The position numbers and the translations under genes are program-made. DNA of 64,000 nt, from NCBI GenBank assembly GCA_040285855.1, contig JAUFOQ010000002.1, positions 2,852,001 through 2,916,000 of the forward strand. The letters are read 5' to 3'. The DNA is from Eukaryota sp. GEM-RC1 (taxonomy: Eukaryota). This document shows, piece after piece, positions 1 to 56,809 of this stretch (position 1 is the first letter of the stretch; each line of letters opens with the position of its first letter). Below the pieces are notes generated by a model. The model was not told the DNA's origin, did not search any database, and worked only from the letters and a program-made list of their open reading frames with translations.

Positions 1-2768
1 GAATTTGTGCGGCAGTAACAACTTTTCTAATTCCGCCTTTAGATAATGTGAGTGGTTCTAAAGACTCAGATATTTCAGAAAAGGCAAGTGGCTGCCAATC
101 AAGAATGATTGACAGCTCATCAGGTTGATCAATCAACAAAGAGAAATCCTCGACTTCCAAAGGTTCTGGACTACTATGGAACTTTGGAGAGTCAACAGGA
201 ATCAATCGGACCGAATCAGGGGTAAGAACTTTCCCAATATAACGTAACTGATGACAATGAGCAAAAAACAACACGCGATTTGATAGATAACAATCAACCA
301 ATCGATCAAAACAGGTCAAATAATCAACGAGATTCAAGCAGACTCTGACAGCACATCCCAAAGTCAGTGCATCAGTATAGATAGACCTCTTGTCCCCATT
401 AATTAGGAGACTAATGTCAATGGTTTCGAGGGAGGAGTCGTTGACTAGAAGAGATAACATTGAAGAAAGAGTTGTTGAACAAATATGATGGGAAGTCAAT
501 TCTTGAATAATTTCAGGAATTTTTTCAGAATTTGAATTATTTGATGAATTTTTGGTAATGAATAGAAAGTCGTTAACTGCTGTTTTAGTTGCTGCCAAAA
601 GACATTGAAAAGTTGCTGCTTTCAGCGCTAGAGCTGAAGTTTTAGTCGTAGGTCTGTGAGTTAAACAAAAGAGCTCTGAACTGAAGAAAAGAAATTTAAA
701 ATTTGATGAAACGAATCCAAAGTTGATGCTTCAAGCACTTCACCTACAGGCCACGAATCACACCGAACCCCACCAAAATCTTTCAACAACATGGAAATTC
801 CTTTAGGAAAGGGACAAAATGAAGGTCCATTTGTTCCCTTTTTAATGAATCTGTAATCCAAATAACAACTAGAAAGTACTGTACCAAAAGAGGAAGTTAA
901 TAACTCAGTGGAAATGATTGCTAGGGAATAGTCATCCAGACTTTCGATATCGTTATGAAATAGTACATTGAACACGTGATCCAAGTGTTGGTGCAAGTGT
1001 TGGACGTAGAGAGGGCATGAAGTAGGGGAGGAGTGGTGGATGAGTACGGATAACAAGGAGCAGAATTGGACAGCGCTTTCGATTAGCATTAGTTCAGCCT
1101 TGTAGATATTTGAAAAAAGTGTCAGAATTTCAAGTTCCTTAGCCATCTCCTGAGAGAAAGCCAATACTGAACCAACCTTCTGTACCCGTTTCTCAATGAG
1201 CTTCATTGAGTTCAATGATTGTTGAAAGATGACGAGATTCCCGTCATCATCGACAACAAAGCATTTAACTGGAGCAAGATTGAACAACAGAGCTATATCA
1301 ACATCTTCAGAAACGACATTACTAGAAGAATTTAATGTATTTTGGGAGTGATCGTAGAACTTCTTCATTGTTTCTTCAGTTGGGTCAACCAAGGAGTAAC
1401 CGAAACTAGACGAATCGTCAGAGCTATCAATGAAGGTAGACCATCTTTTTAAATATTCTAAATAATTCAACATTGAGAGAATTGAAATTCGACTGCTGAC
1501 TAGAGCTAAATGTCGCAGTACAAGAAAGGAGAAATACTTTCGATTATTCACTGTATTTAAATTTTTAAACGACGGACACGTGTCAACACTTTTGGCAGTT
1601 TTCTCACCGACCTCCATCAAATTAATCATCGACAGTGATTGATTAAGATCAGTAGAGCTCGGTGATGACGTTGTCCTCCTAAATCTATTCGCCAAAAGCT
1701 TAACATCTTTACATTTTAAACTTTTCAGCTCCGCAACGATGGCCAATGAATTTTCAAATATTACTTCAGATTTATAAAAGAACGATTGAGCAAAGGTCTG
1801 AGTAGGAGAAGGTAGTCCAAAAAGCAGAGGCTGAGCAACGTGAAAATAGGCCTCTCTTGTTGAGCAATCATCAATTAGTGCGAACATTGAATCCTCTTGA
1901 ATCTCGTCATTTTCTTCAGAAGTCATGGGAAAAGAATCAAAGAACAAATGTTGGAATTTGACTCCCATGTGGAGCAACTTCTCACACTCAAAATACAATT
2001 GATCCTCATTAAGTCCGTAAGATTCTTTAGGACCATCGGAAAAGGAAACTAAAAATCCAAAATATTCAGTTAATTCAGAAAGTTCTTTCTCCCACCCAAA
2101 ATTAGAAAACATATCTCTATTCTTTGACAATACCTCTGTCAACAACTGCTCAGCTCTAATAACAACCGTCGAATGATCAACATGAAGGGCAGCTTCAAGG
2201 GAGGGTCGGATGAAGCGAAGAAAACGTTTGCCTTCCAGTTCTTGGGCTTTAAGTGAGCAGGCGAGTGTAAGAGCATTAAGGAGAGAACTGGGAGATTGAG
2301 AGGAGAAGGAGTGAATGTAGTGAGAGAGAGTTGAGAGTTGATCAGATTTAGTGTTGATCATGTCAGTTAGAAAGAGAGAAGAGTGGGTGGAGTCACTGGA
2401 AGAGGAACGATGGATTGAAGATAAACGGTGACGTAGAAGGGTTATGGAGTGTTGGAGAGAGTCACGGTGTTGTGTGAGGAGATTTTGAGAGGAATTCATG
2501 AGATCTGGGGCAGTTGGGACAGAATAGAGAGAGGTAAGATCAGAGAAACAATCCAGGGAGTACGTAGAATCAGACAGGGAAGGTTTAAGAGCAGAAAGAT
2601 CTGATAGAAGTGAGTCAAAGTCAATGGATGGAAAGTCTATGGATGTTTGGCCTTCAAGTTCACATTTTTTAGTGAGATGAGCAGCATGCTCTGACAGAGA
2701 TCGCAATTGACCTATAAGATCATCAGTGGACAAAGAAAGATAGCTTGCAAAGGGTGCTCATTGTCCAT
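1..2768 (-). CDS. Large host protein of unknown function, runs off the window start
   Basis: ORF 661-2733. ATG at 2768 (MDNEHP) joins it with a 1-nt shift. At ~665 another frame stays open toward the window edge. Confidence 0.6.
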
Positions 2769-2799
2769 GAATCTGAGAAGATGTCTAACAAATTCTAAG

Positions 2800-2875
2800 A
2801 TTCAATAATGCTACAGATTCACTGTAGTAAATACTATGACTATGACAAATAACTGGGTCTAACTCCTAGACCCCG
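2800..2875 (-). ncRNA. Candidate Fanzor omegaRNA scaffold (3' part), overlapping the end of the ORF
   Basis: Hairpin gggtcta-5nt-tagaccc (2855-2873) in the last codons and ctacag-5nt-ctgtag (2811-2827) after the stop, just inside the putative element end. This is where TnpB/Fanzor omegaRNAs lie. Confidence 0.5.
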
Positions 2876-4935
2876 CTCCAAATGATGCTCCACAATGGTC
2901 TTGATGTTGATACATGCTAACTTGTTACGATTCCAAACCTTGGCACTACCATGACATTCTTCTCTACATTCTTGGGACTTGCATCTCAACAAAGCGTGAC
3001 ACTTTACCAGAGGTTTCTTCTCTCTTTCCATGGTTTTGGATTACTGATTTCTTTGAACACTTTAACGGGCTTCCAACAAGTAGGACACTTTGAAGAAGTG
3101 TAACTCTCATCTACGAGAACAAGGTTGTAACCATTTCTCTTAAAGAAGTTTCTCCACATCACACCTCTACTTGATCGGAGGTGTTTTAGGTTATGCCTCT
3201 TATTACCATTGTCACCAAACATCAATACACAGTCATTTTTATTCCATCCTTTTGCAGTCATATTTTTCAACAACTTATTTTCTGTTTTTTGAATATGGAC
3301 GTATCTTTGCATTTTTGAATGCGCCATATCATCAAACAGTAGTAATTAAATGTTGATTCAATAACTGTAAGTTTGGAACTCACATAGTCATAGAAGGTTT
3401 CATAAAGAGTGGACTTTGAATTTTCTTTTGACAACTGTTTTTCCATCTTGGAGAATGAATTCTTTTTTCTTTTCTCTTCTAAACTTTTGATGAACTCTGG
3501 ACAATCTCGACCATTCTGTCTCTGTCAATCTTAGCCACTCGTATTCTTTGTTTCTCATTTCACGAGCAGAATTTTCAGGCTTTCTTATTTTTTCTGAGCA
3601 GAAGTAGAGTAAATCCTTCTTGCCAGGATCAATGTAAACTTTTGTTTTCAATGAAAACTCTTCAACATCATAGTCTTGAACATATTCTTCTTTACTGGAG
3701 AACTTTACACTGTCTGGTTTAAAGGACATTCCCACACAGTCCTCTCTGGTAAGTTCAACACAGGCAGAGAAACCATCAGTTTTAATGGTATTGTTAAACT
3801 TATAACCTTTCTTTATAAATGGACGATTAAAGTTGAAAAAGTAAGACCAGAATTGATTTTGTTCAGCAGGAGACATTCTTTGAATTTCATCTTTTGAATT
3901 CCACTCAGACATTTTCTTCTTGACATTCACTTGTTTTGTTGACAAAGTGGAACGTAATATTCCCCAAAGACCTTGTGTGTCTATTTCAAAGAAACCTGGT
4001 GTGACGTGACGAACAATAGGAATTACATTGTAAGCACTTGCTCCTTCACTTTCAAGATAGTTATTTATTTGAATGGCAGATTTAATAAAGGATTGAGGAT
4101 GTTCACGAACTGATTTTAGTAGAGATTTAACGACTTTCTTTTATAAACACCATTAGCATTTTGAACATCAATTGATGGTGGGAAGAGAACATCAATAAAA
4201 TATTTATCTCTAAACAATCCTTCAACATAGTCGTTAGTTGCCCATAGAAGTTTAATTTTACCTGCAATGTTCAAACTTCTATTACTGTCGTCTTGAAGAA
4301 TTTCTGTATTACATCTTTGAATAAATTGTTTTATTTCTGCACGGGTTTTTGGAATGTCATTTCTGTTACCTTCAAGAAAGACATTTTTAACTTGTCTAAG
4401 TCTCCAACGAAAAACAGACTGTTCTTTTTTTTGACATTGTTTCTTCTTGATCACTCTTTTGAAAATAAACATTAATAAATTTGTCAATGTATTGAGCATA
4501 TCGCATTTTAATGTTTGTGTCCAAATTCGATTTAATAGTTTCACCAACCATTGCCATAAGCCGTGAGGAATGAGCAGCTGGAAAGAGTGGAATTCCTCCA
4601 TTGTTGAGCATTACTTGTTTGTATTCTTCTAAAACAAAGTTTTTCAAGTGTTCATTAAATGCAGGAGCTCGTCCTTGATTACATAATTCAATCTCATTAT
4701 GTTCAGCAGAGATGTTTCTTAACAGAGTTTGAATATGCTCTACTTCTTTCCTTGTAATTAAAGGTAATTTTTTACCATTCTTATCCATGTGTAATAAAAA
4801 CAGCTTCAAACAATAGGAAGTGTGCATTCTAAGTTTGTGAACCAATTGAGCATAATAATCGAGTAATAACGTTAATCCAAAATGTTTAACAATAGACTTT
4901 AGTCCAATTTTATGTGTTACAAAAGTTGGACGAAT
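2840..4935 (-). CDS. Fanzor1 (TnpB-like RNA-guided nuclease) domain
   Basis: HKIGLKSIVK N-terminus, FFEIDT, FWSYFFN, IKTDGFSACV, RuvC-I YIDPGKKDLL, VLMFGDNG, VDESYTSSKCPTC, HALLRCKSQEC, WNRNKLACINI, RPSYLS end. Confidence 0.9.
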
Positions 4936-7900
4936 GATTTTATTTGATTGAAACAATAAAAACAACTTCAATGCTAGTACACTATCTTTGAAGCAATAGT
5001 TCACAACTTCTTGAGGTTTTTCAACAACACAATCAATAGGCAATAAGTGGTGAAATTCGTCATGAAGACGTCCTTTAGATTCGTTTAATAAAAACCAACT
5101 TAATGATCTTAAAGACTTTGAACATTTTGAAACAATAAATTGCTTAGCATAGACGTATGAATCACATACAATTCTACCAGCCCATTCAGAACAAACTTTC
5201 TGCCATAGAGATGATAAATGAGCTTTAGTTGTTTCATCTAGCATTGGTTCTGGAAAGTCGACTCCAAGTGTAACAATCCTGTTGCCTAAAACAACATTAT
5301 CGAAGTCAGTTATGTTAAATCCAGTTAAAACTGACGCATTTTTATCATTCAAATAGTTGACAAAAACTCTAGTAACTGTTTTTCGTTTTCAAAAAATCGA
5401 AGGTTTCTAGAATCAGGTGGCAGTTCAACATCAGATTCATGAGTCAACTCTAAAGTTGCAACAAAATTGTCTTGAAGGTAAAATTGATCTTTTATAAAAT
5501 GACCAAACACTCCAGAAATCATAAAAACTTGTTGGTTTTGAATCCACACTTCTTTTCTGCATCACTTTTCATTTTGAGAGATTCATTCTCGTTCTTTCTT
5601 TGATCATCCAACTCCTTTGTAAGTGTTTCTGCAGGGATTTGATCAATTTCTCTAGTTTCAATATCAAAAGACAATATAGAACAATGATTAGAGTTATTTG
5701 GTAATTGAGAATGTTTGAGAAACTCAATCATTTGTTTTTTAGGAGGTTTCAAACTCTTTGTCGCATTTGACACTCCACTTGCTTTTGGTTTGGTGGTTTT
5801 CCTTTTGGCAACTGTTGTTTTTCTATTTCCTGTTGCTGTTGTTGGTTCAGTGGTGTCAGATGATTCAATTGCTTCTGTTGCTTCTGTTGCTTCTGTTGTA
5901 TCAGGTTTTTCACAAGCAGCAACATTTATTTTTGGAGTTGGTAAATTTATTTCTGGAAGATCTGTTAACTCTGGACGACTAAAGTTATGATAACTTTCTT
6001 GAAATAATTCTTCAGCTTCTTCCAGCGCTTGTTCAATCATTTTTAACTTCAAAAGACGCTTCTTTTCCGATTAGACAAATTTCCAGGTAAACTTTTGAGA
6101 AAGTTTTGATAAGTGAGCTTTGATACCGTTTCCTTGTAACTACTATCATCTACCATTGTTTCAGGAGTTGAACTTTCAGATTGACACTGTACAGGTTGAT
6201 TAACAGGTGATTCAATCTCATCAGAATAAAACTCATTTAAAATACCTTGAGCATGAGTACATACATATTGTCGGTATTCATCAGGGTGATCTTCATCAGG
6301 GTGAGTAGTAACGATTTGAGACAATATTTGTTTTCTCATTTCTAAGGCATTACAAACAACACAATTAGAGACTTTAGACAGAATTTCGAAAAGATTTGTT
6401 GATGTTGATTCACACTCGACAAATTTATTCATATAAATTAGAATAAATGGACCACAGTCATTAAGAGTTTGGACTTGTTGAACTGGTACTCTAGCTATAT
6501 AGCTGAAATTTGCCATATCAAACAGGAATTGCTGTAATTGTGAAATGACTTTGTCAATACGTGATAAAGTGCTAGAAAACTGAGAATGTTGATCTTCTGT
6601 ACACATTGAGTCAATAGAGAATTATTGTTTGTTTTCAATATCACAGATTAACAGTGACCAGTGAGTGGCTGTTGTACCAAAGAGACCGTCATGTATTGGA
6701 ATAAACAAGAAACGTTTCTTACACTCTTTAGTGTGTCTTTTACTGGACTTTTCCATTGATAATTGAACTTCTCTAAATTGTTCAAACATTATGTTATATT
6801 GTGAAAGATTAATAGCATCTTGAATGTTGGCTACTTCAAAGAACTCGCATAGATTACTCTTTTCAGCAATGTACTGACCAACAAAAGTCAATGACAGAAT
6901 CATGAAGCAGCACATTGGGTTTCAGAGTGTCAATTTGATCAGATCTTAGTAAAAGTGGTCTAGGACGAGATTGTGTTAGAATTCCACGATGTTGATGTTG
7001 TAAGATTTGATATTTTTGAGAAAATTTCTTCTTTTTTGGAGGATATTTTCTAGATTGACGAGTTTTTCTTGTACGATTTGAGTCTATAAGTTGATTGGGC
7101 ATAGTCAATGGCACTTGTCGAGTTTCATCAGGAGATGAAACTACTGTTGGATGTTCGGCTATTTCAGAAGTACCAGCAGATCTATTCATTTGTTGTTGCA
7201 AAAATGTAGAATGAACTATGGCACTGTGTTCTTGAACATGTGCTTGAATGTTGTTTGAAAAGCACTCATGTACAATACTTACAGCAAGTATAGCAAAAGG
7301 AATAGGATGCGTGGTTGCTATCAGATTTAGAACTTGTTTTCTCATTTCAAAAGCATCATAATCAACATAACCTTGGACTTGAGACATAATTTCCTGGAAA
7401 TTGTCAGATAATGATGCCAAATGAACAAATCTTTGCATATACATTAAGATATATGGTCCACAGTCGTTGGGAGTTTGATGTTTAATAACTGGAAGCTTTC
7501 CTAAATTTGAGAAATTTCCAATATCACGCAAATATACCTGTAAAGTACTTACAACTTGATCATTTTGAGTTGAAACGTCAAATGAAAGTTGAATTGAACT
7601 GTCAGTGTACATTGGATCAAGTGAAGAAAATGATGTACTATCAATGTCACAAACAAGTAGAGTCCAATGAGTTGCTGTACCACCAAAGACACCATCGTTT
7701 ATTGGAATAAATAAAAACCTTTTCCCAGTCTCTCGCATTGAATTCTGAACATTTAGAAATTCAAGAGCTAATGTGTCAAAATCGCCATAACTCACTGCAG
7801 CATGAAGATTCCCGATAAGGAAAAACTGGCATAACTCACTATTCTCGGTGATGTACTCACCATAAAAGTCAACAACAGAATGATCGAGCCATACGGAGGG

Positions 7901-8092
7901 CTTCAATGTGGTAATTCCTTCCTCAGTGACAAAAGGACCAGGGTTTGACTCTATGTCTCCATCCGTGGTTAAATCATGAACAAACTGTGATGACGGTTGG
8001 TTCAAATGACTATTGAGAAATGACGAGTGATAGTGCGAGTAACTTAATCCTGTTACTATCACCCGAAACACTTTGCAGTGTTTGGAAAGCAT
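2840..8092 (-). CDS. Polyprotein: 2A leader, Ulp1, Ulp1, linker, PolB-type 3'-5' exonuclease, Fanzor1 (about 10 frameshifts)
   Basis: Ten abutting or overlapping ORFs from 6863-8182 down to 2840-3031 join by small frameshifts, mostly 1 nt, e.g. T5 at ~5365 and A8 at ~4428. The breaks fall inside domains. First in-frame ATG at 8092. Confidence 0.75.
4950..5690 (-). CDS. DEDDy 3'-5' exonuclease domain of family-B DNA polymerase type (no polymerase domain)
   Basis: ExoI ILSFDIETR, FENEKQLLEF, ExoII LTGFNITDFD, VCDSY, SLRSLSWFLLNESK, ExoIII NYCFKDSVLALKLF. ExoII/III share ORF 4396-5352 with the Fanzor N-terminus. Confidence 0.85.
6300..6950 (-). CDS. Ulp1/SENP-like C48 cysteine protease domain, copy 2
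   Basis: TLKPNVLLHDSVIDF, FLFIPIHD, THWSLL, SIDSM, QQVQTLNDCGPFI. Catalytic H, D and C plus oxyanion Q are present. Two frameshifts. Confidence 0.85.
7310..7930 (-). CDS. Ulp1/SENP-like C48 cysteine protease domain, copy 1
   Basis: TLKPSVWLDHSVVDFY, FLFIPIND, THWTLL, SLDPM, HQTPNDCGPYI. Confidence 0.9.
7934..7975 (-). other. 2A/StopGo ribosome-skipping peptide DLTTDGDIESNPG/P
   Basis: Exact match to D(V/I)ExNPGP, directly before the first Ulp1 domain. Confidence 0.9.
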
Positions 8093-8167
8093 CAAATAAG
8101 AAGAAAAAGGTGATAGTGCGAGTAACTTAATCCTGTTACTATCACCCGAAACACTTTGCAGTGTTTG
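8027..8167 (-). repeat. Two identical 58-bp copies (8027-8084, 8110-8167) of a two-hairpin structured motif
   Basis: Sense strand aaacact-gcaa-agtgttt cgg gtgatagt-AACAGGATTAAGTTACTCGC-actatcac, present twice with an 83-bp period. Confidence 0.9.
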
Positions 8168-8209
8168 CGACAAAGGGAACAAAAAAGATACAGGTCAAAA
8201 AGATTTCAA

Positions 8210-8219
8210 CTATTTATAG
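8210..8219 (-). promoter_or_regulatory. TATA-like box upstream of the polyprotein leader
   Basis: ctataaatag on the minus strand, ~40 nt upstream of the first structured motif. Confidence 0.3.
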
Positions 8220-8661
8220 CTGATGTTGACACTGACAACTTGACATTATGGCATCTTCATCATATGTTGTACTGGTCTTCTCTTCATGAACACACCTCCC
8301 TATCATCTTAATAGGTGAAGATCCTTTCAATCGTGATCTTTTACTGTGTTTATTTAGCTTCTTCAAAACAGAAGTTCATTTTGACTACAGCTAACTCCAC
8401 CATCATATGCACTCTGTCAGAACTCTTCTCATCTTCACACTTTTGAATGAAAGATTGGGACTGTTTTGATTCAAATGCAAGAAATTGGACACATCATGGT
8501 CATACTCACTCCAACACGTCCCAAATATTAAAGATTTGAACTGAGTTATAGTTTAAAATATTTACACTTACTTTTGTTGAGCACCGCAATGACATTCATA
8601 TAAATAAAACAAAACATAAGAACTACTGCTACATTTTCAACACATAGATGTTGATTTTGTT

Positions 8662-8783
8662 CAACATTTGTAATGACAATATTTGTAGATACAACATTTG
8701 TAATGACAATATTTGTAGATACAATATTTGTAGATATAATATTTGTAATGACAACATTTGTAGATACAATATTTGTAATGACA
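8662..8783. repeat. 15-bp minisatellite, 8 copies
   Basis: Units caa(c/t)atttgta(atga/gata). Confidence 0.9.
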
Positions 8784-8914
8784 CTCACTAAAATCTTGAT
8801 CTAGGGTACAGGTCATTGAAAAAAACGATGAAAGTGCAAAAACAAACAAATAATACAAAGATTAAATCCATTTATAAAACAAAAAATTAAAACACAACAA
8901 CAACTACTGATCTG

Positions 8915-11900
8915 CTACATTTTCCCCAAATTTGGGGAACACTTCCCCAAACCTTCAGCATTGACATCAACAATCTCATCTGATACTTGAGAATCATGTG
9001 CAGTCGGCCGACGACGTTGAATTTGGTCTAATTCAGATTCGTAATCGTTAGTAGAAGCTGAATAGTAATCCACTAAACTCTCCCAAAGCAGATTTGTTCG
9101 TAAAAGCTTTTCATGTCCACATATAAAATTACTAAACCTGCTTCTGGTCAGCATAATATTTATTCTTCGCTCATCTGTCAAAAAACCTAGACTTTGAGTA
9201 ATGTTGCCTTCTTGATAGGATCTCACTGTACTGATAAATACAAAATCTACTTCTTTTCCCTGAAATGCGTCAGTTGTTGATATCTGTACATTGTCTAAAG
9301 GTGGTTCAATAGAGTCAAACAATTGTCTGAGTTGATCAACCTGTGCCCTGTAAGGTGTCAACACTGCCACACTAAATGAACGCTTGAGAACTTTTTCCAA
9401 TGCATCTTTGTGATCCTTCAAAAAATCACAAACTCCTTTAATAACAGCAATGGCTTCGTGTTCGTTGAATAAACTACCTGCCAATTTTTCTGAATAATCT
9501 TGAATTGACCCCCATGTGTTTACAAAATGTCTTTTGGCACATGTCAATTGTTCACCAGTGATTGGTTCCACAGTGTCAATTTGATCACTGTAAAACATTG
9601 AATTAGAAAATGCCCACAATTCTGAGAATTGACGATATTGTGGATTCAGTAGTGTGTAGCGTTCTCTATCAAAGTGATGTGCCAAATCAGATTGATCAAT
9701 CAATCTTTCCATCAAAGACTTGGACAACCCTGGGTTTTGATTGAAGACTACAGGGGGTAATTGTTTATGATCTCCAACAATTACAATGGTTGTAAATTCA
9801 TTACAAATTCATAACGCAGCCACTAGTTCAGGCTCAGTTGACTGGCAAGCCTCATCAATAATTAAAAGTTGTGGTTTAAAAATACCTTTATTCCTGTAAC
9901 TGCTCGCTCCTGCTAATGTTGTGAAGAGAACATCATATTCTTTAGAAATCCACGAAAGATCATCCTTTTCTTCTTCCCTCATCTTGAGCAGCAGGTGTAG
10001 TGGTATGTGGCTGACCATGTTTAATATTCCTTCTTGGTTGTTTAAGTGGAGGAAGTCTGACAGCTTGTTGATCTAATAAATCTTGAGCATCTTGTTCATC
10101 TTGTTTTTCAGCTTCTTCTTTTGCTTGCTTTTGTTCTAACTTTGTACTTAACAAGAACGGTTGAACTTCTGGTAAAGGATGTAATTGAGAACTTATTCGC
10201 ATCAATTTTTGTTCATCAACTGAATGTTCATCAACTAGCTTGGCTAATATTACGTCAACTGCATTATTCGATGGAGCAGCTACCCAAACCTTGCATTTGT
10301 TAGACAAAAAGACATAATCAATTTGACAATGGTCGTTGTTTTCCCTGTACCAGGTGCTCCATGAATCACATATAGACCATGGGAAGTTACATGCAATTTT
10401 CTAATTTCTTCAATTGCCTTTTTTTTGACAGTCATTTAAATTTTGACAGAGTTCTGAATCAGTTTTAAAACTTAAACAACTTGGTAGTTGTGGTGCTTTA
10501 GGAATAATTCCTAACTGGTATTGAACACGTAGAGGAATTTCTAAATCCACCATGGCAGAAATTTGGCGCAAAAAGTGACTACCAGAACCGATTTTGACTG
10601 CAAACAGTACAGTAAGTGGGCAAATAGGGTCTTGGGTAATTACAGACATCTTTGACCATTGAGTTGTCTTTGATAGTCGATGACATTTACTGACTATTGC
10701 AAAATGAACATTGAGACTTGCAGCCATCACGTCAGCCAGAGATCCAATCATAAAAATATCTGATTCACCAACATGCTCACATTGTCGAACATTAGACAAA
10801 AATTCTTGAAAAGCCTGATGAACATTGACTTCACACATTGGTAGATCCTTGGAAATACCTCTATTCAAAAAAGTTTTACAACCATTAATATTTGGCCTAC
10901 TGGTGGGATTCTTCGTTCTATCAGCTAATAATATTCGAATATTAGTCACAAATCCCACTTCTTGTTCGACTGATTGTTGTAAAGAATAAACCATCAAGAG
11001 ATCTTGTTTGTTGAAATTTTTGAATCCGAGACAGCATGAAGATGTTACTTCGTCCAGAATTCAATCAATCCAGTCAGCCGAATATTTGGTTTGTAAATTC
11101 AATTTTGCTCTGAAATTAATTTTCATTTCATCTGGCATCTTGAATCTAGAATCATCTTGAGCTATTTCTTTGTCTTCAGCTGATTCTGTATCTTCGATTG
11201 CTTGTTTTTTGGAACTCCACCACATGAACATTAGTGGTACAAAAAGACTACTGACCGGAGTTTTTCTAGGTCGTTGGATCTGGGACGTTTGATTTGTCGT
11301 CTGAGGTTTTTTTCTGAAAAATTTCTTACCAAAAAGAAACGATGAAGTATTAGGCTCGACTTTATCTTTCAAATTCAATAAAAATAGTAGTTCTTTTTGA
11401 GTTGACGAAGAAAATTGTTGCTCTTCATCTTCAGACCAAAATGGAACAACCTGTCTTTGAATGAACCTATCTGATTTGGGAAGAGGATCAATACCAGTGG
11501 CGAGAACAGTGTAGCAATTACTCAGAGACAGCTGGTCGTCTGGTGGGGATCTTTCTAATTCAGGATCTTCAGGATCGTGTTCAGTCATTGTCTTGATAGT
11601 TTGTTTTGCAAACTGTACAGCTTCTTCATGGGTGTTACATCTGGCTGTGGTAGTTTGTAAAATCCCAAGCCATTGAGACTGGAAGTGTAACGGTTCATCA
11701 TACTTGATCCAATATTATGGTTGTTCCTTGTCGATGGATACAAATGCATGGCATCCCGCTTTCTGGTTGGGTCGGATTCTTCTTTTGTCTTGTTCCGTGG
11801 ACCTGGATCAGATTCAATGTCTCCACAAAGCGTAAGATCAATCTTGAAAAGAACATACAGCGAGTAACTCAATCCTGTTTGTATGCTCTTAATAGCCTTA

Positions 11901-11956
11901 TGGCTATTGGGGGATAGAAAGGTGAAAGGAGGCTCTTCTAACCTATAGAGTTCCAT
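8915..11956 (-). CDS. 2A-led Upf1/DNA2/NAM7-like SF1 helicase (frameshifted)
   Basis: Walker A IHGAPGTGKTTT (~10335-10370), VAAPSNNAVD, IIDEACQ, VGDHKQLPP (~9755-9780), SLMERL, LNPQYR, LTPYRAQV, TTDAFQGKEVD, FLTDERRINIMLTRSR. About 6 frameshifts. Confidence 0.88.
11798..11839 (-). other. 2A-like peptide DLTLCGDIESDPG/P (N to D variant)
   Basis: Matches 2A except DPGP replaces NPGP (gat vs aat). Lies at the N-terminus of the helicase ORF. Confidence 0.75.
11851..11908 (-). promoter_or_regulatory. Third, diverged copy of the two-hairpin motif, before the helicase 2A
   Basis: Sense strand aatagcc-ataa-ggctatt aa gagcataca-AACAGGATTGAGTTACTCGC-tgtatgttc. Same geometry as the other copies with different, still paired, stems. 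Confidence 0.75.
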
Positions 11957-12005
11957 ATAGAGTGTGGAAACACTTATTTTGAGTTCTTAATCACCCACTT
12001 CTTTA

Positions 12006-12603
12006 ATGTCATTCGAGTCCTTAGAATCTGAATACGACAAACTTATAGAACTTCTTTCTAATGTGAGCGATCCATCAGGAAATCTTCCGGATTCATCTTC
12101 TCCTGAATTCCTTCAACTTCTAAACCAAATCAATAAAGTCACTTGGCCTCTGCAGCAGGACGCTGTTAAAGCAATTCAATTAGGCTTGGAATACCAAGAA
12201 CTTGGAGAAGTAGCTCGCAATGTACACTCTCAGTTATCATCACTCAGAATTCGAGCCAATGTTCTGCAACGTGAACATGACCGTCTAGCTAGTGAGATTT
12301 CTAATCCCCTTGATGACCATCGTGATCTCATCCCACCAGAACTTCACCCCATTGACAACAAAGCCGAGCTGTTTGCAATCATGGATTATTATGATGTAAA
12401 AAAAATGTGATGCAAAATTGAAGTTGCTGGACATGCCGCCAGAACTCGATCCGCTTGATAATCCAGATGCGGTGGCTGCTTGGTTGAGAACACAAATTTT
12501 CCTACGGAGGCAAAAACAGCAGATGAAACTGCCAGAGCCCCAAAGAAAATTGGGGAAAAAGGCCAGCCAAGTAAAGAAAAAACGTATGAATTATAAACTT
12601 TAA
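12006..12603 (+). CDS. Small helical protein of unknown function within the element
   Basis: ORFs 12006-12410 and 12418-12603 join by deleting one A in the A8 run at ~12400. Internal repeat PPELHPIDN / PPELDPLDN and a basic C-terminus. Confidence 0.6.
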
Positions 12604-12854
12604 TAAAAATTTAATTTTAAGTTTATCATAGTCTATCATAGTAACACTTTACATGACTGAAAAGTGTAAAACACCAACAAATTTACGACCAATCTCCATT
12701 CCTGCAACCTAGAACATAAATCTGCCGTGCTAATCTAATCCCAGCTACAACCGTCGTTAGCTAACCTGAATTAAAACAAAAAAAAGGTATCTAAAAAGGT
12801 ATGTAATCAAGTATCAAATTCAAAACAGTCAATTTCTAAGCACTTTAACTCCAA

Positions 12855-22776: not shown

Positions 22777-24060
22777 CTTTTCAAGATTTCTGGTTGTTTG
22801 GGATTTTACAAATGAAGTGTTTTTAAACACTCTAGTGGTGTTTTTTAACATCCACAAATTTCTGTATAATTTAGGTGTTTTTTAATACTTGTAGAAGTTT
22901 TAGTTTCTGATTTTAGGTATTTTTGTATTTGGTGTTGTTCAATACCAATTTCCGAGTGTTTTTCAACAGTTCGTGTTTCAGCATTTTGTGCTTGTAAATA
23001 AAAGGTATGTACAACAGTTGTTTTGTAATTATTTGGGTTACATATTTTTTCAAAACTGAATTTGTGATGATATCATAGATGTAAAAGCATAGCTTGAAAT
23101 GAACAGACAGGGGTTTATGATCAGTCAGTGAAATAAATGCATTTGCAGAAGTTAAATTAACATTACCACTAATTTCCTCATTTTAAAGATGAATCTGTAC
23201 GACTATTAAAGTATCATTCGTGATTTGTTTCCAAGCCTTACATGTCAAGTTAGCAGGTTGTATAGCTCTGTCGTATCATTCAAGAAAATGAAAAACTGTC
23301 GAAATCCCAGTAGTATATGTAATGTAATGATATTTTGACACAGAAAAGGATTGTTCCAACTTTCCTATTTTTCTAACATTGTGGACATGGTAGAAACAAT
23401 AGTTGAGTTTCTTCTTCATAACTTCAAGGTACGACAAAAAGTCGGCAGTGACAAGTATATTTATCTATTACTCAATACTGCTCTCCAATGGTTCATCGAG
23501 TGTATACAGACACTATACATTTAGCAGTCTTGTAAAGTTTTGGTTGAAACTCCCAATGATTCCTAGTGGTCTTGGAGTATTTCCATTCCTATAATGGAAA
23601 CGTTTCCGAAAAACAGAATTGGGAGTCAACAAACAACTTGATTATTCAAAAAAAATAACAGATTTTGAATGTGCGTAAGTACATTTAAATTATGAGTCAG
23701 TGAATGTCTAAAATTCTTCAAAAACGGAGTACCTTACTGTTGTCTTAAAATTGAATCCAGAAATTGGTTTTGGTGACTTCGGTTTCACATTCAACGTGGA
23801 GTACTTGTTATACGCATTTATACTTTCGAAATAAGCTACTTGAGAACTTTGTGAATATTGTTTGGAGAATATATTTTACTACATGTAGTAGTACATTATT
23901 GGTGACACTTGCTCTTGGAAAATTAGAAATTGTGGATTTGATTATTGACTTCGATTTCCAATAATTTGTTATCACTTGGAAGTCATTGTGAAGTTAAGGC
24001 GGTATAATACTAGTATTTACATAATGAGAATTTGGACTTTAAGGATATTGATCAATACTA

Positions 24061-24619
24061 CACTCTTCACAACAATTAGTCTGAATCAGACGAATTATGT
24101 ATGTCCATTGAAACATTACCAAACAATAATTTGTTTGATTCAGAGTAATTAGTGATTCAGACTAATAAATGTCTCGGAAAATTAGTCTGAATCAGAGTAA
24201 TTATGAATATTCATATTTAGTCTGAATCAATATCCCAAACACAAAAACTATCTTGATCCTCAAATCATGTTATGTCTTCATAAATGTTATGTTATACATC
24301 AGGATCGTTGTTGGTACCTTAAATAGAAGTATAAGACCGAAGAAATTGAGAAACAGGACTGATCGGCCATCGAAGTACCTCTTCAAAATTGATTAGTGAC
24401 CGAATTGTCTTCCAAACAAGTGCCAATAATGCATGACACGGGCTGTATATGGAAATTCAACCAAAGTGTCTCGAAAGAAAAGTGAAAAAAGGGATATATA
24501 ACACAATTTTGCTCAAAAGTATTGGATACTCCTAAGGTGGTCAAACAATAATTAGTTTGATTCAGACTAATAAGTGATTCAGACTAATTTTGAATTCAGA
24601 CTAATTGTTGTGAAGAGTG
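24061..24619. mobile_element. Tc1/mariner-type MITE
   Basis: Perfect TIR cactcttcacaacaattagtctgaat, TA duplication (24059-60, 24620-21), internal repeats of attagtctgaatca. Confidence 0.88.
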
Positions 24620-25399
24620 TAGCATTAGTAATTCTATTAGTAATTTGTTCTGAAGATAGGACCTTTTACAAAGTATCGGTCCAATAACTACCATAGCTGT
24701 TTTCATACAATAGCAAAACCCTCATGTCTGTTGTCAACAAATTTTTGCCGACGAAAGGAAAGTGTCACCATTTTTTCGCAATGTTTCAACAGTAGATCCA
24801 AGTGCTCAAACTTATGTTAACGGATTAAATGCAAAGGTTTCATTCACCTAGAAACAGCCTAAAAACGTAAAATTGATTTGTATTCCAAAGATGTTTCTAA
24901 ACTCAATCAAAAAGTATCTTCAAAATTTGTATTTTTCCATTTGCTATTTCTATTTTTGTTAGTATTGGTGAAATGGCTTCTCAGTTTTTAACTGATTTTG
25001 GATCTATGTGTAAGTCTCAGAGTAAGAGATTTAAGTTATCAATTTGGCACAACCGTTTGATTTATTCTTTGTTCCGTTCGATACCTCAGTTTTATAAATC
25101 AATCACAACAAAGCTGTATAAAAACTGTGGTACTGTTGACGAACAATTTTCTGTGTCTAGTGTTTCTTAGCTTCTTTTATGATGTGTTTTTTTGTACCCT
25201 TCAACGATAAACTGTTTTCGTCGAAAACCAAAATTCTGAAAGATTATAGTGTTTGTCACCTCATTTTTGCACAACTGTTTTGTGCAAGAGATTAATAAAC
25301 AGTTTTATTCATGATAAGGACAAACATATAGTAAATTATATATATTTTAACACTGTTTTTTATTGACAACAACACTACAGTGTACATCCATCTAACAAT

Positions 25400-25700
25400 C
25401 AATATCCTCAAAGTCTAGATTACCTATCTGGAAATTCTCACCAACCTTATCCTCATAATGTCTGCCAAGAGATAATAAAGCGCTAGATACTGAACACAAT
25501 TCGCAAACACAATTCGATTTTTCCAAAATCTAAGATCAAAAGTCGTAGATGGTTTTTCTTTAACAATCTTCACAAAGATTTCAAGTAATGAGGTTGCCAA
25601 TTCACCTAAAGAACCCTACAGTGAAAATACAAAAGGGTACAACAAGTAATTCGACTGTGAAACCGAATTCAATAATTTCAATTTTCCATTACATTTTTCA
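25400..25700 (-). mobile_element. 3' fragment of an RLE-type non-LTR retrotransposon
   Basis: YPFVFSL*GSLG...FWKNRIVF, similar to the fragments at 48631-48957 and 49382-49627. Confidence 0.6.
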
Positions 25701-25999
25701 CCAATGAATAAAGGGTTTGTAGCATTAGATTTAGCAAGTTTCTTGTTGGAATCATTACAAACATCGATAGACATAACATCAGCAATAATGAATGATCCAT
25801 TAAGACCAGGAATATTCAGTATATTATACAGTATACAAAAGTTACCCGACCAACAGTACCACATTTCTCAACATAACTTGCAACAATGTGTTTCAAACCA
25901 ACGAAGGATAAATGATGTCAGCTCAAGTCACGAATGTTCTGATGTTCAAAGTGTCAGACTTTGTCAAACTATTTTTGAACCTGAATTTTGGTCCTTTCC

Positions 26000-32820: not shown

Positions 32821-34639
32821 GTTTTTGTGACTAGTTCATTTTGTAAAATGTTTTGGTGTTTTTACCGGTTTTTGTATTTTTTATTATGATGATAAATGAG
32901 GTTTTCCACAATATTTTAATTCTTTGTGACCAGTTATCAGATTTCAGACAGCTTCTCATTTATCTAATGTACTAGGATTTTTTCACGGAGTGACTGAGAT
33001 CTCGATCAGGAGGAACTATTGTGGTCTTCATGTTGGTTCAGAATATGGTAAGAATTTGTAGGAAGTGTATCTGTTTGGGTACCGTATAAAGTCTTTATAT
33101 TGGTACAAAAGTTCAACAATGTTGACTTGCTAAGTCATTTGAGTCTTTTTCACAGAAAAATACTTGTATTTGAAGAGAGAGTTCACTATTCTGCTTACAT
33201 TATTCTGTTTTATGTGTTTCAACTTGAGAATTTGAAAGATGAATGTAATGATGTGATTAGTATTGGTGATGAAAGCAACTTTCATTACTTAGAAACTCTA
33301 ATGAAAATTTTGAAACCGTGCTTTTTCTAGTAGTTGATGCTCTCTCCTTTAAAACAAAGCCTCTTGTTTTTAATCTAGTTGGAGGAAAGTATTGAACTTT
33401 CTGTCATTATGTACAAATGTTGGACTAACATACTCTTAAATGTAACCCTTCCATTCCGTACAGGTTATGAATTGTTTATAACAAATATTAATGATTCCTA
33501 ATGTGTGATGAGACTCACCAATGCAGAAACACTACTAGTACTATCACGGACAAATTATTAATAAATTGTTAATTGTATCGTTCAGGACGTTCCAGCAGTT
33601 AAAGCCATGTAACTAACTTCGATCTCTGCAATACAACTGAGGTACACTGTTTGTGTGCTGCTACCATGTTCACTGATACAACAAAACGATATCAATCAGC
33701 ATACACGAAGATCCTATTGTGAGTAAACGGCTGTTCTAATAGAGTTTATAAAGGTTGTATCACGAGGCTACTTCAATGATGGAAATGCTCTCAGAACTAC
33801 GTCTGTTTAGATCTTATACTCCATTAAGGATGATCAGATCGGTGGACTTCAAGTAATATTGTTCTTGCTGTAAACTCATTATCGACAAAGTGCACAGTAA
33901 CAGAAAAAGAGGACTTATACTCATATGTTTGGTGTTAGATAAACTAAAGATGAGATGCTGGAGAGAAATGCAGCAGTCAGAGATCTAATTTCATCGATCG
34001 TACAAGCATTTTAACTACTTTATTCCCTTGCAAAGTCGAACTGAAAACCAAGAGTTCAAAGAAGTCGATCAGGTTGAACTACAAGTGATTTGCAGGTTAT
34101 GAGCTTCATGAAAATATTTATTAATCTGGACTGTTTTTTGCGGTGAATACTTGAGAAATTGGTGCATTTTTTCGTCTGTTTATTTGAGGTTGACTGGAGT
34201 TCTGAGACTTTACATGATTGGATACTGAATCAATTCTACCTGAAGTAACATTTCTTACATGCAAAGTTTGCACCCTATTCCTATGGCCACACCATTCAAG
34301 AAGAATGTATAGTATTTGAAGGGGTGTAACACGTTTGATCGTTTCGACTTTCTTGTTGGATCTTTAATTACTTTATACAAACATAATAAGCACGATGTTG
34401 ACAAATTCTACTTTTAAGCATACTTGGAAAATACAAATACATGTGCTGTATTTTTTTTGTATTTTTGTATTTTTGTAGTTTCTCAGACTCAATAAATGCT
34501 GTATTTTTTGTATTTTTTTATGCTAAATTAATACTGTATTTTCTGTATTTTTATGGACACTGGAAAATGGTTCTCTACTGAATTTCTGGTTCGCCATCTG
34601 GAAATAAATCTGACCACAAATTGGAGTCAAGATTATTAA

Positions 34640-34825
34640 CCTCTTCCGCAAAAATTTGGGCCGGAAAATTCGGTGATTTTTCAGCAGTTAAAACTATTTA
34701 CCCATCTTTTTTCGGTCCAAATGAATAATAGTGGAATTTACACATGCAGTACAATTTCCCTATCTTTTTTCGCCACCATCTTTTTCGCCACCACTATTAT
34801 TCGGCCCAAATTTTTGCAGAAGAGG
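34640..34825. mobile_element. piggyBac-type MITE
   Basis: TIR cctctt(c/c)(c/t)gcaaaaatttgggccg matching 23/24, flanked by TTAA at 34636-39 and 34826-29. Confidence 0.85.
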
Positions 34826-36427
34826 TTAATTGAGTCGTAAAGACTAATTGACCATGCACAAGGTGTGAGAAGTTAAAAATCTTTTGTTTTCCACAACCAA
34901 GAACAACGATTCAGAAATTCAAACAAAAATTCTCCAAAGACTCCAAAAAGGCACATTCATTCATGTATTCGTTGCTTTGGATCTTTTAGAAGCATGGTCA
35001 AATTGTAGATCTGGATTTTGGTAAACAAGTGTCGTTGGCAATGCTTCCATTATGTTTTGGTGGTGATATACAATTTGGACGTGGTTTTCCACCTAAACAA
35101 ACTCTGGATGTACCTCGAAATTTCAATTCAATGTGTACCAATTTTGTGCCAACGGCAGTACTTTACAACTATTGTAGTCTTATTTAGGGAGGAGTTGTTC
35201 TAACCCAACACAAAAACCTTTTTGTTACCATCTTTGTCATGTATTAAAGCAACTAAGAGACCACCTGAAAAACCCTTCAAACTACAGCGATCGATCTCAA
35301 TCTGACCGTTGGTATCTCTTTTGATCTTAGCACGAGAAACAACTGGTTCCACAGTTGTGCCAAACGGATGACCAATAAGAAGAACACAATCGTTTTGTTC
35401 ACGAATCATAGCGTATTCCTTAACACTTTCTAAAACTATAAAGTTCCTAGCACTACATGAAAAGTTTAATTAAAGTAACCATACTTTATTTGTAAATTAA
35501 TGAAATTTTGTAATGTACAGAAATTAACAAACTACATGTACATGTATTAGTACTTAAAGATATTAAATGCTCTACATATACTCTACGAACCACGATACAA
35601 TTCGTCCGGAATACGATTTAAATACTTTGGAACACTTCTATACAATGAAAACACAATGCAATTGCACGATAGAGGTTTCTGAAAGAAGATTACGTACACC
35701 CACGAAATGATTTTGAAACAATAATATCAATGAGAATCCTCAGCAACATTACCATGAACGAAAATAATGACTAGACTTTTACTTCGAATCTGACAGAATT
35801 TCGCAGAATTTCTGGAATTCGGGGTTATTGACGACATTAGGAGCAATTCCACAAGATGATAACATATCAACTAAAGCAACATCGCATCTGTCTTTAAATA
35901 TGTCTTTAAGTCTAGTAGCCAACATGTTAAGAGCTAATGACTACTCATGCAAAGTGTACTACACGAACCCATGTGACCATGTTTGTATGGACCATTTGTA
36001 TCAACTTGATTTTAAACAATCTTTAGCTATTGTACCAACTTTTCAGAATTTTCAAATAATATCTTTTCAAGTTTAGTGTGCTTGATTTCCAAAAACTCTA
36101 TTGGTCCTGAAGGTGCCAGAGCATTGGCGGAGTCCTGAAAGTGAATTAAACAATGGTTCAAATTTATCGTGGCAGCTCTATCGACACTGAAGGTCCTAGA
36201 CAGTACATATGGATGCAAATGTGTAGCACACAACTCCATTGTACATCATGATATAGCACTACTTTCAGTGATTTCTCACAACTCAAGAAAAACTGATGTG
36301 CTCGTATTGTAAAAGAAATTGACGACTCAGTAAACACAAAATAGTGGTGTGATGTCAATTATTGAATTCTGTTGAATTCCGAATCTCTTGATGACTTTCT
36401 GGTCACGAAAATTAGAAATCACTCCTA

Positions 36428-42067: not shown

Positions 42068-42837
42068 CATAGCTGTCAAATACAACCAACACGTGTTTGA
42101 AAAATACAAAAATACAAAAATACACACGAAAATACAAAAATACAAGTAATACAAATTGATTTATTAAAAACTATAACTATTTGTTGTTTGTTGCTCAAAT
42201 TATTGGAATAAGCTAAGTAGGTTTGTGACTACAATACTCTTGAGTTAGAAAACTGATTCTTCACTTTCTAACAGATTTTCGTCTTCTCTCATCTTCATAA
42301 TACGTGATCTATTTTTACGCCGTGGCTTTCCAGCTTCAGGGGAGAAACAATTCATTATTAGATCACTGCTATATATTGGGAGGTCCCTTTGGGGTTGCTG
42401 ATAGCAACCATACTCCAAAGAGGATTCCCACCCTTGACGTGACGTAAAGAACAGTTGACAGGGGGGGTTTTACTAGGAGAGGGTTGTATCATAATTGTTG
42501 AGAGAAGTAATTTACCAACTGTGAAAGCACCAACAATAATTATTGTTGGTGCTTTCACCAATGGAATGAAGAAAAGCTTGTTTATTGATCTATACAAGAA
42601 AGAAGAGATACTGCCACGTCACTATTCACTAACACTGTATTAGCAGTAGCAGAGATGTTACCGCAACAACTAGAATCAAATTTATGAACCAATGCCGTTA
42701 GTTGATTGATCTACACATACTAACCATGGCTTTCAACGGTTTAGATAGTACAATCAGAGAAATATTGAAATCTAGCGAAATTCGTTCAAAAATACAAAAT
42801 ACACTAAAAATACACAAAAGTGTATTTTTCAGCTATG
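42068..42837. mobile_element. Probable non-autonomous hAT-like element
   Basis: Inverted ends catagctgtcaaatac / gtatttttcagctatg; aaaatac repeats at both subtermini. Confidence 0.5.
42521..42558. repeat. Perfect 38-bp palindrome
   Basis: gtgaaagcaccaacaataattattgttggtgctttcac equals its own reverse complement. Confidence 0.95.
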
Positions 42838-42999: not shown

Positions 43000-43584
43000 C
43001 TAAACCACCAACCAAATTATATAAAATATTGTCCTCAACTTGTTAAAATTTCTTGAAAACTCGCAAGTAACCTCAGGCGGAAGACGTTTCAGCCAGTGAT
43101 TTATCTTAACAGCAAAACAAACCGGCAACACAGTAAAAGACACTTGCTTGCCAACATCCAAATCCAAAATTTGTTTCAATTGACAGAAAATGGAATCATT
43201 TTTGTCTTTCAACTTTTTCTTTGTTTCATTCAAATTACCAATGGAATTTGCTAGAAAGTTAATACTGTTTTCTGAGCAATTGAAAAGGAATCGGGTCATG
43301 ACATGCAAATGAATCTCTTTTGAGACCATCATTGACACACCTCTTAATTTTAATAGATGAACCAACTGACTCTGACAGACAAACAACACGAACAAAACCA
43401 CGGGTAAAAAAAGATCAAAAGTACCAACCAAAGATGTAACATCAGCGTAAGAATTAATTCTTATTTCTGGAAATTCAACAGAAAATGATCTCAAAATCTT
43501 CCATAAGGGCAAACAGAATAGAAAGGGACCCAAAGTTTCACCTTGTTTAACTCCACGTGAAGAAATAACATTGTAATCGACCAC
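43000..43584 (-). pseudogene. Decayed non-LTR reverse transcriptase fragment
   Basis: SSRGVKQGETLGPFLFCL, SYADVT (degraded YADD), KINHWLKRLPP. Confidence 0.8.
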
Positions 43585-44914
43585 AAGAGGGGAATGAAAT
43601 TTGTTAATATTGATGATAATCTTAATTTGAATGATTAAATAAGAGGAGTTTCAGCAGAACCATGTCTATCTTAAACATGTTCTCAATCTAAATTGGAAAA
43701 CAGCATTTGTGAGCGTATCAACGTTTATGTAGCATTCACAGAGACAATCTAACGAACTACCTACTAATAATTCTGAAAAAGTAGTTACCACCAAACAACT
43801 TGGCTAAAATACAAACAACATCTACCTACATTGACTTATATAGAAAAAGCAAATTTACTCTTCCAGTAGAACCTGTTAAACTTCCTACCAAATTTCGAAA
43901 TTATTTGAGCAACTGCTTACTATAAAGCGATATTTGTTTAAAAAAGTGAAAATGATCGAAAGATATTTTCTTTGTTAATTCTTTAATTCGTTAAATCAAT
44001 CGCACAGAAACTTATGAGGACCTCTTATAGTTCTGTGTCTGTAGAGGATTTACTCTGGAACACTCTTATTAGTTTTTAGTTGTTGTGCCACGTGTTGAAG
44101 TTGGTTTCACTTACTGTCAGATTCCTTGATTGGTTTTAAATGAATTAAGAGACTAACAGAAATACATAACTGCTACCATGTCGGTCTCATTTAATTCCAT
44201 TGCTTTAAGATACTAAGTCACTTGTTCCACTGAATAAATATGTATTGTTCAATTGTTGGATGTTAGCCATTACTTTCGCTATTCTTAAATCAGTGTGGAT
44301 AAACGTTCGGTCCATATCGATTTATTTTAACCACATCAATGAAAAGTTTATGTTACTAGTAAATAAAGACATTTTCATAAATGTGTTCAAATAATATCAT
44401 TTCCAAAGTGGTGATGTAAAAAAACAGAATACCGTACATTTTTCACAACAACCTTGAAAAGTATTTACGACTACTACTTTTGTACATCAATGTTCCAAAG
44501 TAAAGGAATATTCATTCGTCAAAGCCAGTATCATGACAACAAAATCAGTTCTCTGTTTCTTGTGGTCGTTTCATATAACCAACGACTCTTTGAGTTTACT
44601 TAATATGTTTGTTTCAAGAAGTCGTTCGTAACATTGCGATGTCTATTTAAGAATATACTTAAAAGCAAAGACGTTCACGTGTGATGCTTAGGCTCCGTAT
44701 CTACCAGTTAAATTGTGCAGAGGCTACACTCAGCAAATTGTGCACTGATGAATTGAAAGGGTGTGTTTGCCGCGATTAGTACTGTACTTGGGTATCACAT
44801 GGTGAAAAAAAACTACTTTTCGGAATTAGGTAGTTCGTTTGATAATTTGTTTTAATAGTGTTTATTTATTTGTTGATTTCTTATTATGTGTTTTTCTCCG
44901 CAAATAAATCCGTT

Positions 44915-56801: not shown

Positions 56802-56809
56802 GAAACAAC

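Follow-up and report, generated by a model that had tools for sequence, protein, structure and literature searches.

An exonuclease–Fanzor polyprotein in a multi-copy element with no recognizable transposase from Eukaryota sp. GEM-RC1

Results

Architecture of the polyprotein

The DNA analysed here, referred to as the window, is a stretch of 64,000 nucleotides from Eukaryota sp. GEM-RC1 (assembly GCA_040285855.1, contig JAUFOQ010000002.1, forward-strand positions 2,852,001 to 2,916,000), and the subject of this study is a gene cluster of about 10 kb that lies between two divergent host start codons at 2769 and 12855. The initial annotation had described the cluster as a Fanzor/helicase element, and both proteins are indeed present, as judged from domain profiles and PDB sequence matches; it had missed a PolB exonuclease, two Ulp1 domains and two 2A-like motifs, as well as the fact that 8092 to 2840 is a single broken open reading frame (ORF). 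The exonuclease–Fanzor polyprotein encoded by this frame, ORF-B, is the distinctive feature of the element, rather than the helicase. Its domains follow one another in the order 2A-like motif, Ulp1, Ulp1, basic linker, PolB 3'–5' exonuclease and Fanzor1.

2840–8092, minus strand: ORF-B, broken polyprotein of ~1,750 aa (six-frame reading and mapped intact relatives P0003 and P0009)
7934–7960, minus strand: 2A-like (StopGo) motif GDIESNPGP at the start of ORF-B (motif reading; core D(V/I)ExNPGP)
6300–7930, minus strand: pair of Ulp1 (C48) protease domains in tandem (with conserved His and Cys motifs; DNA identity between the two 66%)
4940–5685, minus strand: Pol-delta-like DEDDy 3'–5' exonuclease, directly N-terminal to Fanzor (profile match, motifs)
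2840–4926, minus strand: Fanzor1 domain (sequence, PDB sequence matches, predicted model of relative P0051)
3628–3630, minus strand: RuvC-I D (sequence)
3106–3108, minus strand: RuvC-II E, beside a C4 zinc finger, CxxC/CxxxxC (sequence)
2924–2926, minus strand: RuvC-III N (sequence)
2811–2873, minus strand: candidate omega-RNA scaffold overlapping the Fanzor stop (7-bp stem 2873–2855, 6-bp hairpin 2827–2811)

The exonuclease of the window carries the motifs ExoI (SFDIET), ExoII (GFNITDFD) and ExoIII (YCFKD), and the corresponding DEDDy signatures (DxE, NxxxFD and YxxxD) were found both in the window frames and in six families. The match to PF03104 has an E value of 2e-5 in the window and 3e-13 in an intact relative, and the closest solved structure is that of Pol delta (3iay, E 3e-12). 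All five catalytic residues are kept and ExoI–III are complete in six families whose exonucleases are only 26–39% identical, which points to selection on nuclease activity. When 149 representative matches were scanned, exonuclease matches were confined to members of the clade described below; for the other Fanzor matches, the profile alignment starts at their own N-terminus, at the point where the Fanzor of the fusion begins, so that the exonuclease appears to be a clean N-terminal addition. We regard the exonuclease–Fanzor architecture as well supported.

Both sequence and fold place the nuclease with Fanzor1 and not with Fz2, TnpB or Cas12, the top PDB sequence matches being SpuFz1 and PpFz1. 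The predicted model of relative P0051 has a predicted local distance difference test (pLDDT) score of 89 and template modelling (TM) scores of 0.65–0.70 to SpuFz1 and PpFz1 and 0.52 to GtFz1; the predicted fold of a 1096-aa exonuclease–Fanzor reached a pLDDT of 31. The RuvC-III residue is Asn in all 22 clade members that cover the site (seven do not), whereas the 106 covering sequences outside the clade have Asp in 100 cases, Asn in three, Gln in two and Arg in one (18 do not cover it). The D>N change was considered as a sign of a dead nuclease and ruled out, as GtFz1, which has a D-E-N triad, cuts, and SpuFz1 D606N cuts better (PMC11423790). The D-E-N triad of the clade is of the type active in GtFz1, and activity is predicted here. 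The guide RNA of Fanzor1 is reported to comprise the element 3' end and some 15 nt of flanking sequence (PMC10711439), and the cut to lie near the far end of the target (PMC10530073). The stems of the candidate omega-RNA sit where expected, a 7-bp first stem being typical of Fz1 omega-RNAs (PMC11423790); its structure is statistically weak (z about -1.6), and Rfam returned no match to it.

The Ulp1 assignment rests on PF02902, which matched above cut-off in two stretches, and on the presence of the His, Asp and Gln-x-x-x-x-Cys catalytic motifs. The number of Ulp1 domains varies among families (two, one or none), and in P0214 the Ulp1 domain precedes the 2A-like motif. A motif resembling that of ORF-B was seen in 13 of the proteins examined; its core is exact in ORF-B and has an N>D change in the helicase gene, ORF-A, while one family has an E>H change. 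In five families, including that of the window, the motif lies upstream of the exonuclease.

The window copy of ORF-B is interrupted by nine frameshifts and one nonsense codon. Nine of the 11 frameshift sites mapped in ORF-A and ORF-B coincide with runs of at least four identical bases, against a background of 26%, and one of the 11 is common to five other gene models. The assemblies of the named relatives were made from Nanopore reads and polished with short reads (10.1101/2023.05.03.539051), so many of these breaks may be consensus errors. The three nonsense codons of the window copy (6622, 9811 and 11061) suggest that it is also truly damaged.

Copies and phylogeny

Searching with the exonuclease–Fanzor frame gave four long relatives in Eukaryota sp. 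GEM-RC1 and TZLM3-RCL, which makes a skoliomonad metamonad the likely host. At least 32 locus tags of GEM-RC1, one of them deduced from its accession, correspond to 31 loci on eight contigs, 29 of which have pieces of ORF-B; this count is a lower bound, for which 20 proteins were looked up. The copies are 90–95% alike as protein. The sister species TZLM3-RCL has intact polyproteins (P0003, 1846 aa; P0009, 1905 aa), and a profile search of 1.84 billion representatives, together with a cluster look-up, brought in more families from TZLM3-RCL and TZLM1-RC. A tree was built of 153 sequences, leaving out rows with fewer than 170 aligned C-terminal positions; in it, the exonuclease–Fanzor proteins formed one clade of 29 tips (support 1.0) drawn from three skoliomonad proteomes. 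Scans of metagenomes, of prokaryote genomes and, at the level of close relatives, of viral contigs found no related loci. In the gene models P0011 and P0054, host domains (a DEAH helicase and DM10, respectively) are fused to a copy that is cut at its 5' end and complete at its 3' end.

The helicase gene and the extent of the unit

The remaining parts of the cluster are ORF-A, a small divergent ORF and a joint between ORF-A and ORF-B that contains several repeats.

8915–11956, minus strand: ORF-A, broken, ~1,010 aa (six-frame reading, profile and structure-database matches)
12006–12603, plus strand: small coiled-coil ORF, divergent from ORF-A with 49 bp between the ATGs (frameshifted; 199 aa in relative P0032)
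8822–8870, minus strand: 49-bp piece just behind the helicase stop (88% identical to the long interspersed nuclear element (LINE)-like remnant 48024–47976, E 6e-10)
8662–8792, no strand: 15-bp tandem array between ORF-A and ORF-B (repeat analysis)
8027–8167, no strand: exact 58-bp duplication, 8027–8084 and 8110–8167 (repeat analysis)

ORF-A begins with a leader that contains a variant 2A-like motif (GDIESDPGP, 11824–11798) and is related to the leader of ORF-B; a low-complexity stretch, a 1B beta-barrel-like domain and a Upf1-like superfamily 1B (SF1B) core follow. The core matches AAA_11 and AAA_12 and resembles UPF1 (E 1e-21). The domain in front of it (~11060–10440) had been a candidate for an OTU or transposase domain, which was rejected when the structure Atlas pointed instead to the Upf1 1B barrel, with scores of 0.87–0.92 that are to be read as leads. 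The 49-bp piece behind the helicase corresponds to the stop codon and 3' untranslated region (UTR) of the LINE-like remnant.

The initial annotation had taken the whole 10 kb as one element. In favour of such a unit, the order and spacing recur at one other locus with a helicase–Fanzor link, where the helicase tag 012053 lies three tags from the exonuclease–Fanzor tag 012056; against it, four copies (P0017, P0039, P0044 and P0045) have a different sequence upstream of the ORF-B 2A motif. Pieces of ORF-A were found at two other loci, compared with 29 for ORF-B. The 58-bp duplication sits where the window copy departs from the leader of the other copies and is weakly like the ORF-A leader at 11847–11879. 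ORF-A and the small ORF look like optional 5' cargo. The leader upstream of the 2A motif in P0039, P0044 and P0045 is a tandem repeat with a period of about 31–35 codons, which the window lacks.

Insertion site and ends

Two end signals were compared at the edges of the cluster.

2789–2799, plus strand: left 11-mer, candidate target-site duplication (TSD; sequence match, real-window controls)
12830–12840, plus strand: right 11-mer, candidate TSD (sequence match, real-window controls)
2827–2849, no strand: candidate subterminal repeat of the asymmetric type, left arm of a gapped inverted match (shuffles, real windows)
12622–12652, no strand: right arm of the same match, with a hairpin at 12645–12667 (shuffles, real windows)

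The two 11-mers (caaattctaag on the left, caatttctaag on the right) are present as first described, with one mismatch between them, and removal of the element leaves 44 bp between the ATGs at 2769 and 12855, where ~45 bp had been claimed. Five other divergent pairs measured in the window are 28–87 bp apart; since a spacing of 44 bp is typical of them, the insertion must end near the places of the 11-mers. The proposal that the 11-mers themselves are the boundaries was not confirmed, as the match is close to chance: with up to one mismatch allowed, an equivalent turned up in 30, 91 and 175 of 300 shuffles across search zones of three widths, narrow to wide, and among real windows in 85 of 1671 at 76 nt and 81 of 493 at 256 nt (5–16%). 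The rival signal is the gapped inverted match of ~25 bp, which has a hairpin outside each arm; seven of 1000 shuffles were as good, this being one of 10 comparisons, and so were 55 of 1972 real windows. Repeat analysis of the region agreed with the earlier statement that it has no long terminal inverted repeat (TIR), long terminal repeat or poly(A). A hairpin lies 11 nt inside the left 11-mer, and Fanzor occupies the 3' end of the element. The left host gene (661–2769, minus strand) has its ATG at 2769 one base out of frame with a long ORF near 2755, perhaps through a homopolymer error.

Searches for a mover and other repeats in the window

The absence of DDE, HUH, tyrosine-recombinase, reverse transcriptase (RT) and capsid motifs noted previously was upheld in every frame tested against Pfam, PHROGs and NCBIfam, and domain profiles detected no mover in the 10 kb or in the long relatives scanned. 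As regards an autonomous Helitron, no Rep match was obtained, and what precedes the helicase is a domain resembling the 1B barrel of Upf1. Neither RT nor restriction-enzyme-like (REL) endonuclease, as expected of NeSL/CRE non-LTR elements, was seen in the window frames or relatives scanned, and the same searches gave no PolB catalytic domain, capsid, packaging ATPase, integrase or long TIR of the kind found in Polintons and giant viruses. The Fanzor 3' end lacks both poly(A) and a tandem tail, and it matched no LINE end of the window significantly (best score 45, null mean 41). Identity of this end with a miniature inverted-repeat transposable element (MITE)-like end at 24580–24649 was also rejected, the similarity being at chance level (score 42, null mean 41).

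The MITE-like element itself (24054–24626) has 33-bp inverted ends (97%) and internal short repeats and lies inside a LINE-like remnant; a further small element (34635–34830) has 35-bp inverted ends (91%). At least eight related short LINE-like remnants are present: 24901–25167(+), 25401–25729(-), 48019–48379(-), 48634–49041(-), 49283–49624(+), 54088–54162(-), 56276–56935(-) and 35559–35663(-). From their motifs we take these eight to be the C-terminal endonuclease region of REL-type (CRE-like) non-LTR elements. Two LINE-like remnants are inverted around a third at 48–49.6 kb. RT-like remnants lie at 43003–43650(-) (RVT_1, E 0.0098), 44865–45200(-) and 34981–35145(+). Elsewhere the window contains a leucine-rich-repeat gene of 84-bp units (54266–55507) with a decayed paralogue (36094–36194), two dispersed direct-repeat pairs of 84% identity (14720–14970/16887–17134 and 53167–53630/56349–56806) and near-perfect palindromes at 42521–42558 (38 bp) and 52631–52679 (49 bp).

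Discussion

The gene cluster is a real mobile unit. The description of it as an unclassified element without a transposase of its own, mobilized in trans or spread by Fanzor homing, agrees with the 29 other loci, the active-type RuvC triad and the failure to find a mover in the frames tested. Our tentative preference, which falls somewhat short of being probable, is that the window holds a broken copy of a multi-copy, transposase-free element that has a cut-and-trim homing fusion and is carried by a mover in trans. Its class would best be read as that of a non-autonomous, 3'-anchored Fanzor element like CRe-1/2/3 of Chlamydomonas.

Restorative homing is the current model for Fanzor-type nucleases (PMC13565253). 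Under our working hypothesis, an omega-RNA formed from the element 3' end and about 15 nt of flank would guide a cut of the empty allele distal to the target-adjacent motif (TAM), after which the TAM-side 3' end would bear 15–20 nt of far-flank bases unmatched at the donor junction. The fused exonuclease would trim this unmatched tail in cis, enabling host repair to copy the element in. During yeast Pol-delta proofreading, invading 3' ends are chewed back by up to about 40 nt and 3' non-homologous tails are excised (PMC9477423). We consider the predicted cut-and-trim role moderately likely. The Ulp1 domains might de-SUMOylate factors of repair or silencing; release of a leader peptide would fall to the 2A-like motif. 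Homing leaves the 29 dispersed loci unexplained. For dispersal, CRe-1/2/3 are the closest precedent: as described in PMC3627910, they have Fanzor1 only, an intact 3' end, a truncated 5' end, 7–19-bp duplications and extra sequence inside the 5' duplication (PMC10288648 is a further source on elements of this type). Dispersal may be 3'-anchored copy-and-paste of the kind proposed for CRe-1/2/3 as non-autonomous Helitron2 elements, the weakest step of the scheme, and would leave copies cut short at the 5' end, with duplications of variable length such as the 11-mer.

Several points weigh against this reading. Recombination requires a 3' overhang, which is not the product of a 3'–5' exonuclease; the role of the enzyme could instead lie in target destruction or RNA trimming. 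The window copy may be dead, given its nonsense codons. The window showed no HUH transposase, RepHel included, and the two end signals are each of marginal strength. The candidate ends, TSD and TAM rest on the DNA of one copy; on its minus strand the 11-mer is preceded by AGTG, which is not T-rich, unlike the CRe insertion site. The gene models P0011 and P0054, the sole evidence for truncation, may be splice artefacts.

The main rival is that the copies are non-autonomous retroposons made in trans by host REL-type LINEs through target-primed reverse transcription, the 11-mer being a LINE-type TSD. It holds this place owing to the precedents for 2A-like motifs and Ulp1 and to the LINE-like remnants nearby; nevertheless, we judge it unlikely. 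N-terminal 2A-like motifs are known in non-LTR elements (PMC3708506) and Ulp1 in NeSL and Utopia (PMC4640811), the window is rich in related C-terminal remnants and RT fragments, a LINE stop and 3' UTR piece lies behind ORF-A (8870–8822), 5'-cut gene models exist, and Fanzor1c has been reported near LINEs (PMC10530073). However, the Fanzor 3' end shows no poly(A) or tandem tail and no significant similarity to LINE ends in the window, the unit contains a divergent gene pair, the 49-bp piece may be a separate short LINE insertion, and restorative homing requires excision at the DNA level (PMC13565253). Moreover, the 2A-bearing elements in PMC3708506 are of the apurinic endonuclease (APE) type, whereas the local remnants look REL-type, judging from their motifs and the weak RVT_1 match; and Ulp1 is not diagnostic, as it also occurs in Mutator and Ginger (PMC2836005). 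Those same Ulp1 carriers, with the report that Fanzor1 occurs mostly in DDE elements (PMC13565253), could be read in favour of a DDE cut-and-paste derivative with decayed TIRs of ~45 bp, TA at 2812–2813 and 12667–12668 and a mariner/CMC-type transposase acting in trans. The inverted match 2827–2849/12622–12652 and the TA-CAG and GTG-TA at its outer edges fit such an origin, which we consider very unlikely: alignment of the arms requires gaps even though the copies are so alike as protein, 55 of 1972 control windows reach the same score, and the empty site would be about 230 bp, compared with 28–87 bp for other divergent pairs.

A mover may also be dispensed with altogether. The element could be self-mobile, the Fanzor cutting a guide-like site, the exonuclease trimming and host strand invasion copying from the 3' end, with the helicase as an accessory. 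The want of a mover in the 10 kb and the long relatives scanned, the retention of both nucleases in several old families, and the association in Chlamydomonas of TSDs with Fanzor-bearing families, described as very rare in Fanzor-less Helitron-N (PMC3627910), all speak for this; homology-dependent copying would nonetheless explain allelic spread and not 29 dispersed loci, and we hold the proposal to be improbable. We give similarly little weight to its extension to an autonomous element without transposase, RT or recombinase, whose StopGo polyprotein would cut, trim and de-SUMOylate while host recombination copies up to 10 kb. PolB exonucleases, cysteine proteases, SF1 helicases and Fanzors all occur in large DNA viruses, and the element is AT-richer than host genes, so an origin from a giant virus, a Polinton or a Polinton-like virus, of which the element would be a remnant, comes to mind. 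The suggestion that the unit is virus-derived is nevertheless unsupported and the least probable of all, since the replication and packaging genes listed above were not detected, the nearest relatives of the exonuclease and the helicase are Pol delta and Upf1/Sen1, respectively, and no viral contig matched in scans that reach close relatives only. Finally, the 10-kb span may have been put together from separate insertions, namely a Fanzor element of 5.3 kb, a scrap of a LINE and a helicase unit; this doubtful but serious possibility bears on the boundaries alone and can stand alongside the other readings. The four copies with a different leader, the scarcity of ORF-A loci, the failure of a weak search to find any ORF-A relative longer than 521 aa in the sister species, and the duplication, tandem array and LINE piece at the ORF-A/ORF-B joint favour it, but helicase and Fanzor recur in like order and at like spacing at tags 012053 and 012056, both ORFs begin with related 2A-like leaders and the entire span lies within one short divergent promoter.

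Fanzors are usually lone nucleases on DNA transposons. An old and selected Fanzor1–exonuclease fusion is a direct test of the homing model, predicting that non-homologous tails are trimmed after the cut. Engineered nuclease–exonuclease editors exist. The fusion would be their natural counterpart, with a D-E-N triad of the kind that raised the activity of SpuFz1 (PMC11423790). It also extends 2A-like motifs to a non-viral element that has no RT, and Fanzors to the metamonads, the host being an anaerobic single-celled organism. A literature search of titles, abstracts and passages, outside the supplementary catalogues of PMC10530073 and PMC10711439 and outside Repbase, gave no natural exonuclease–Fanzor fusion, Fanzor–Ulp1 protein or skoliomonad Fanzor, and the available passages of PMC6338049, PMC10691335 and PMC12846837 mention no such fusion; on the basis of this search, the exonuclease–Fanzor fusion appears new among Fanzor1-bearing non-autonomous elements.

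Of the known systems, CRe-1/-2/-3 of Chlamydomonas reinhardtii share with the window element a Fanzor1 without transposase, as far as their description in PMC3627910 extends, and a 3' hairpin; at the level of candidates, the likeness includes an asymmetric inverted repeat, an apparent 5' truncation and a possible 7–19-bp duplication. The window element differs in its target, which is not T-rich, in a polyprotein with exonuclease and proteases and in intron-free frames, and no autonomous Helitron partner is known for it. The helicase of Helitron RepHel is of the Pif1 type, unlike that of ORF-A, which shares its core and 1B-barrel-like domain with the SF1B helicases Upf1, Sen1 and IGHMBP2 and is set apart by lying in a repeat and having a 2A-like leader. 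ORF-B has an N-terminal Ulp1 in common with NeSL and Utopia-1_TSP, and an N-terminal 2A-like motif in common with Ingi, L1Tc, CR1 and Crack, but in contrast to all of these it is accompanied by no RT, REL or APE endonuclease and by no 3' tail at the Fanzor end. The proofreading domain of Pol delta (3iay) shares ExoI–III, whereas ORF-B has no polymerase domain and its exonuclease is fused to an RNA-guided nuclease. SpuFz1 (8gkh), PpFz1 (9cf0) and GtFz1 (9cer) share with the window Fanzor the fold, the RuvC-II Glu beside a C4 zinc finger and the position at the element 3' end; the Fanzor of the fusion, however, is placed in one chain behind an intact DEDDy exonuclease, as many as two Ulp1 domains and a 2A-like motif, and proteins of the fusion clade measure 1,200–1,900 aa, compared with about 600–800 aa for known Fanzor1 nucleases.

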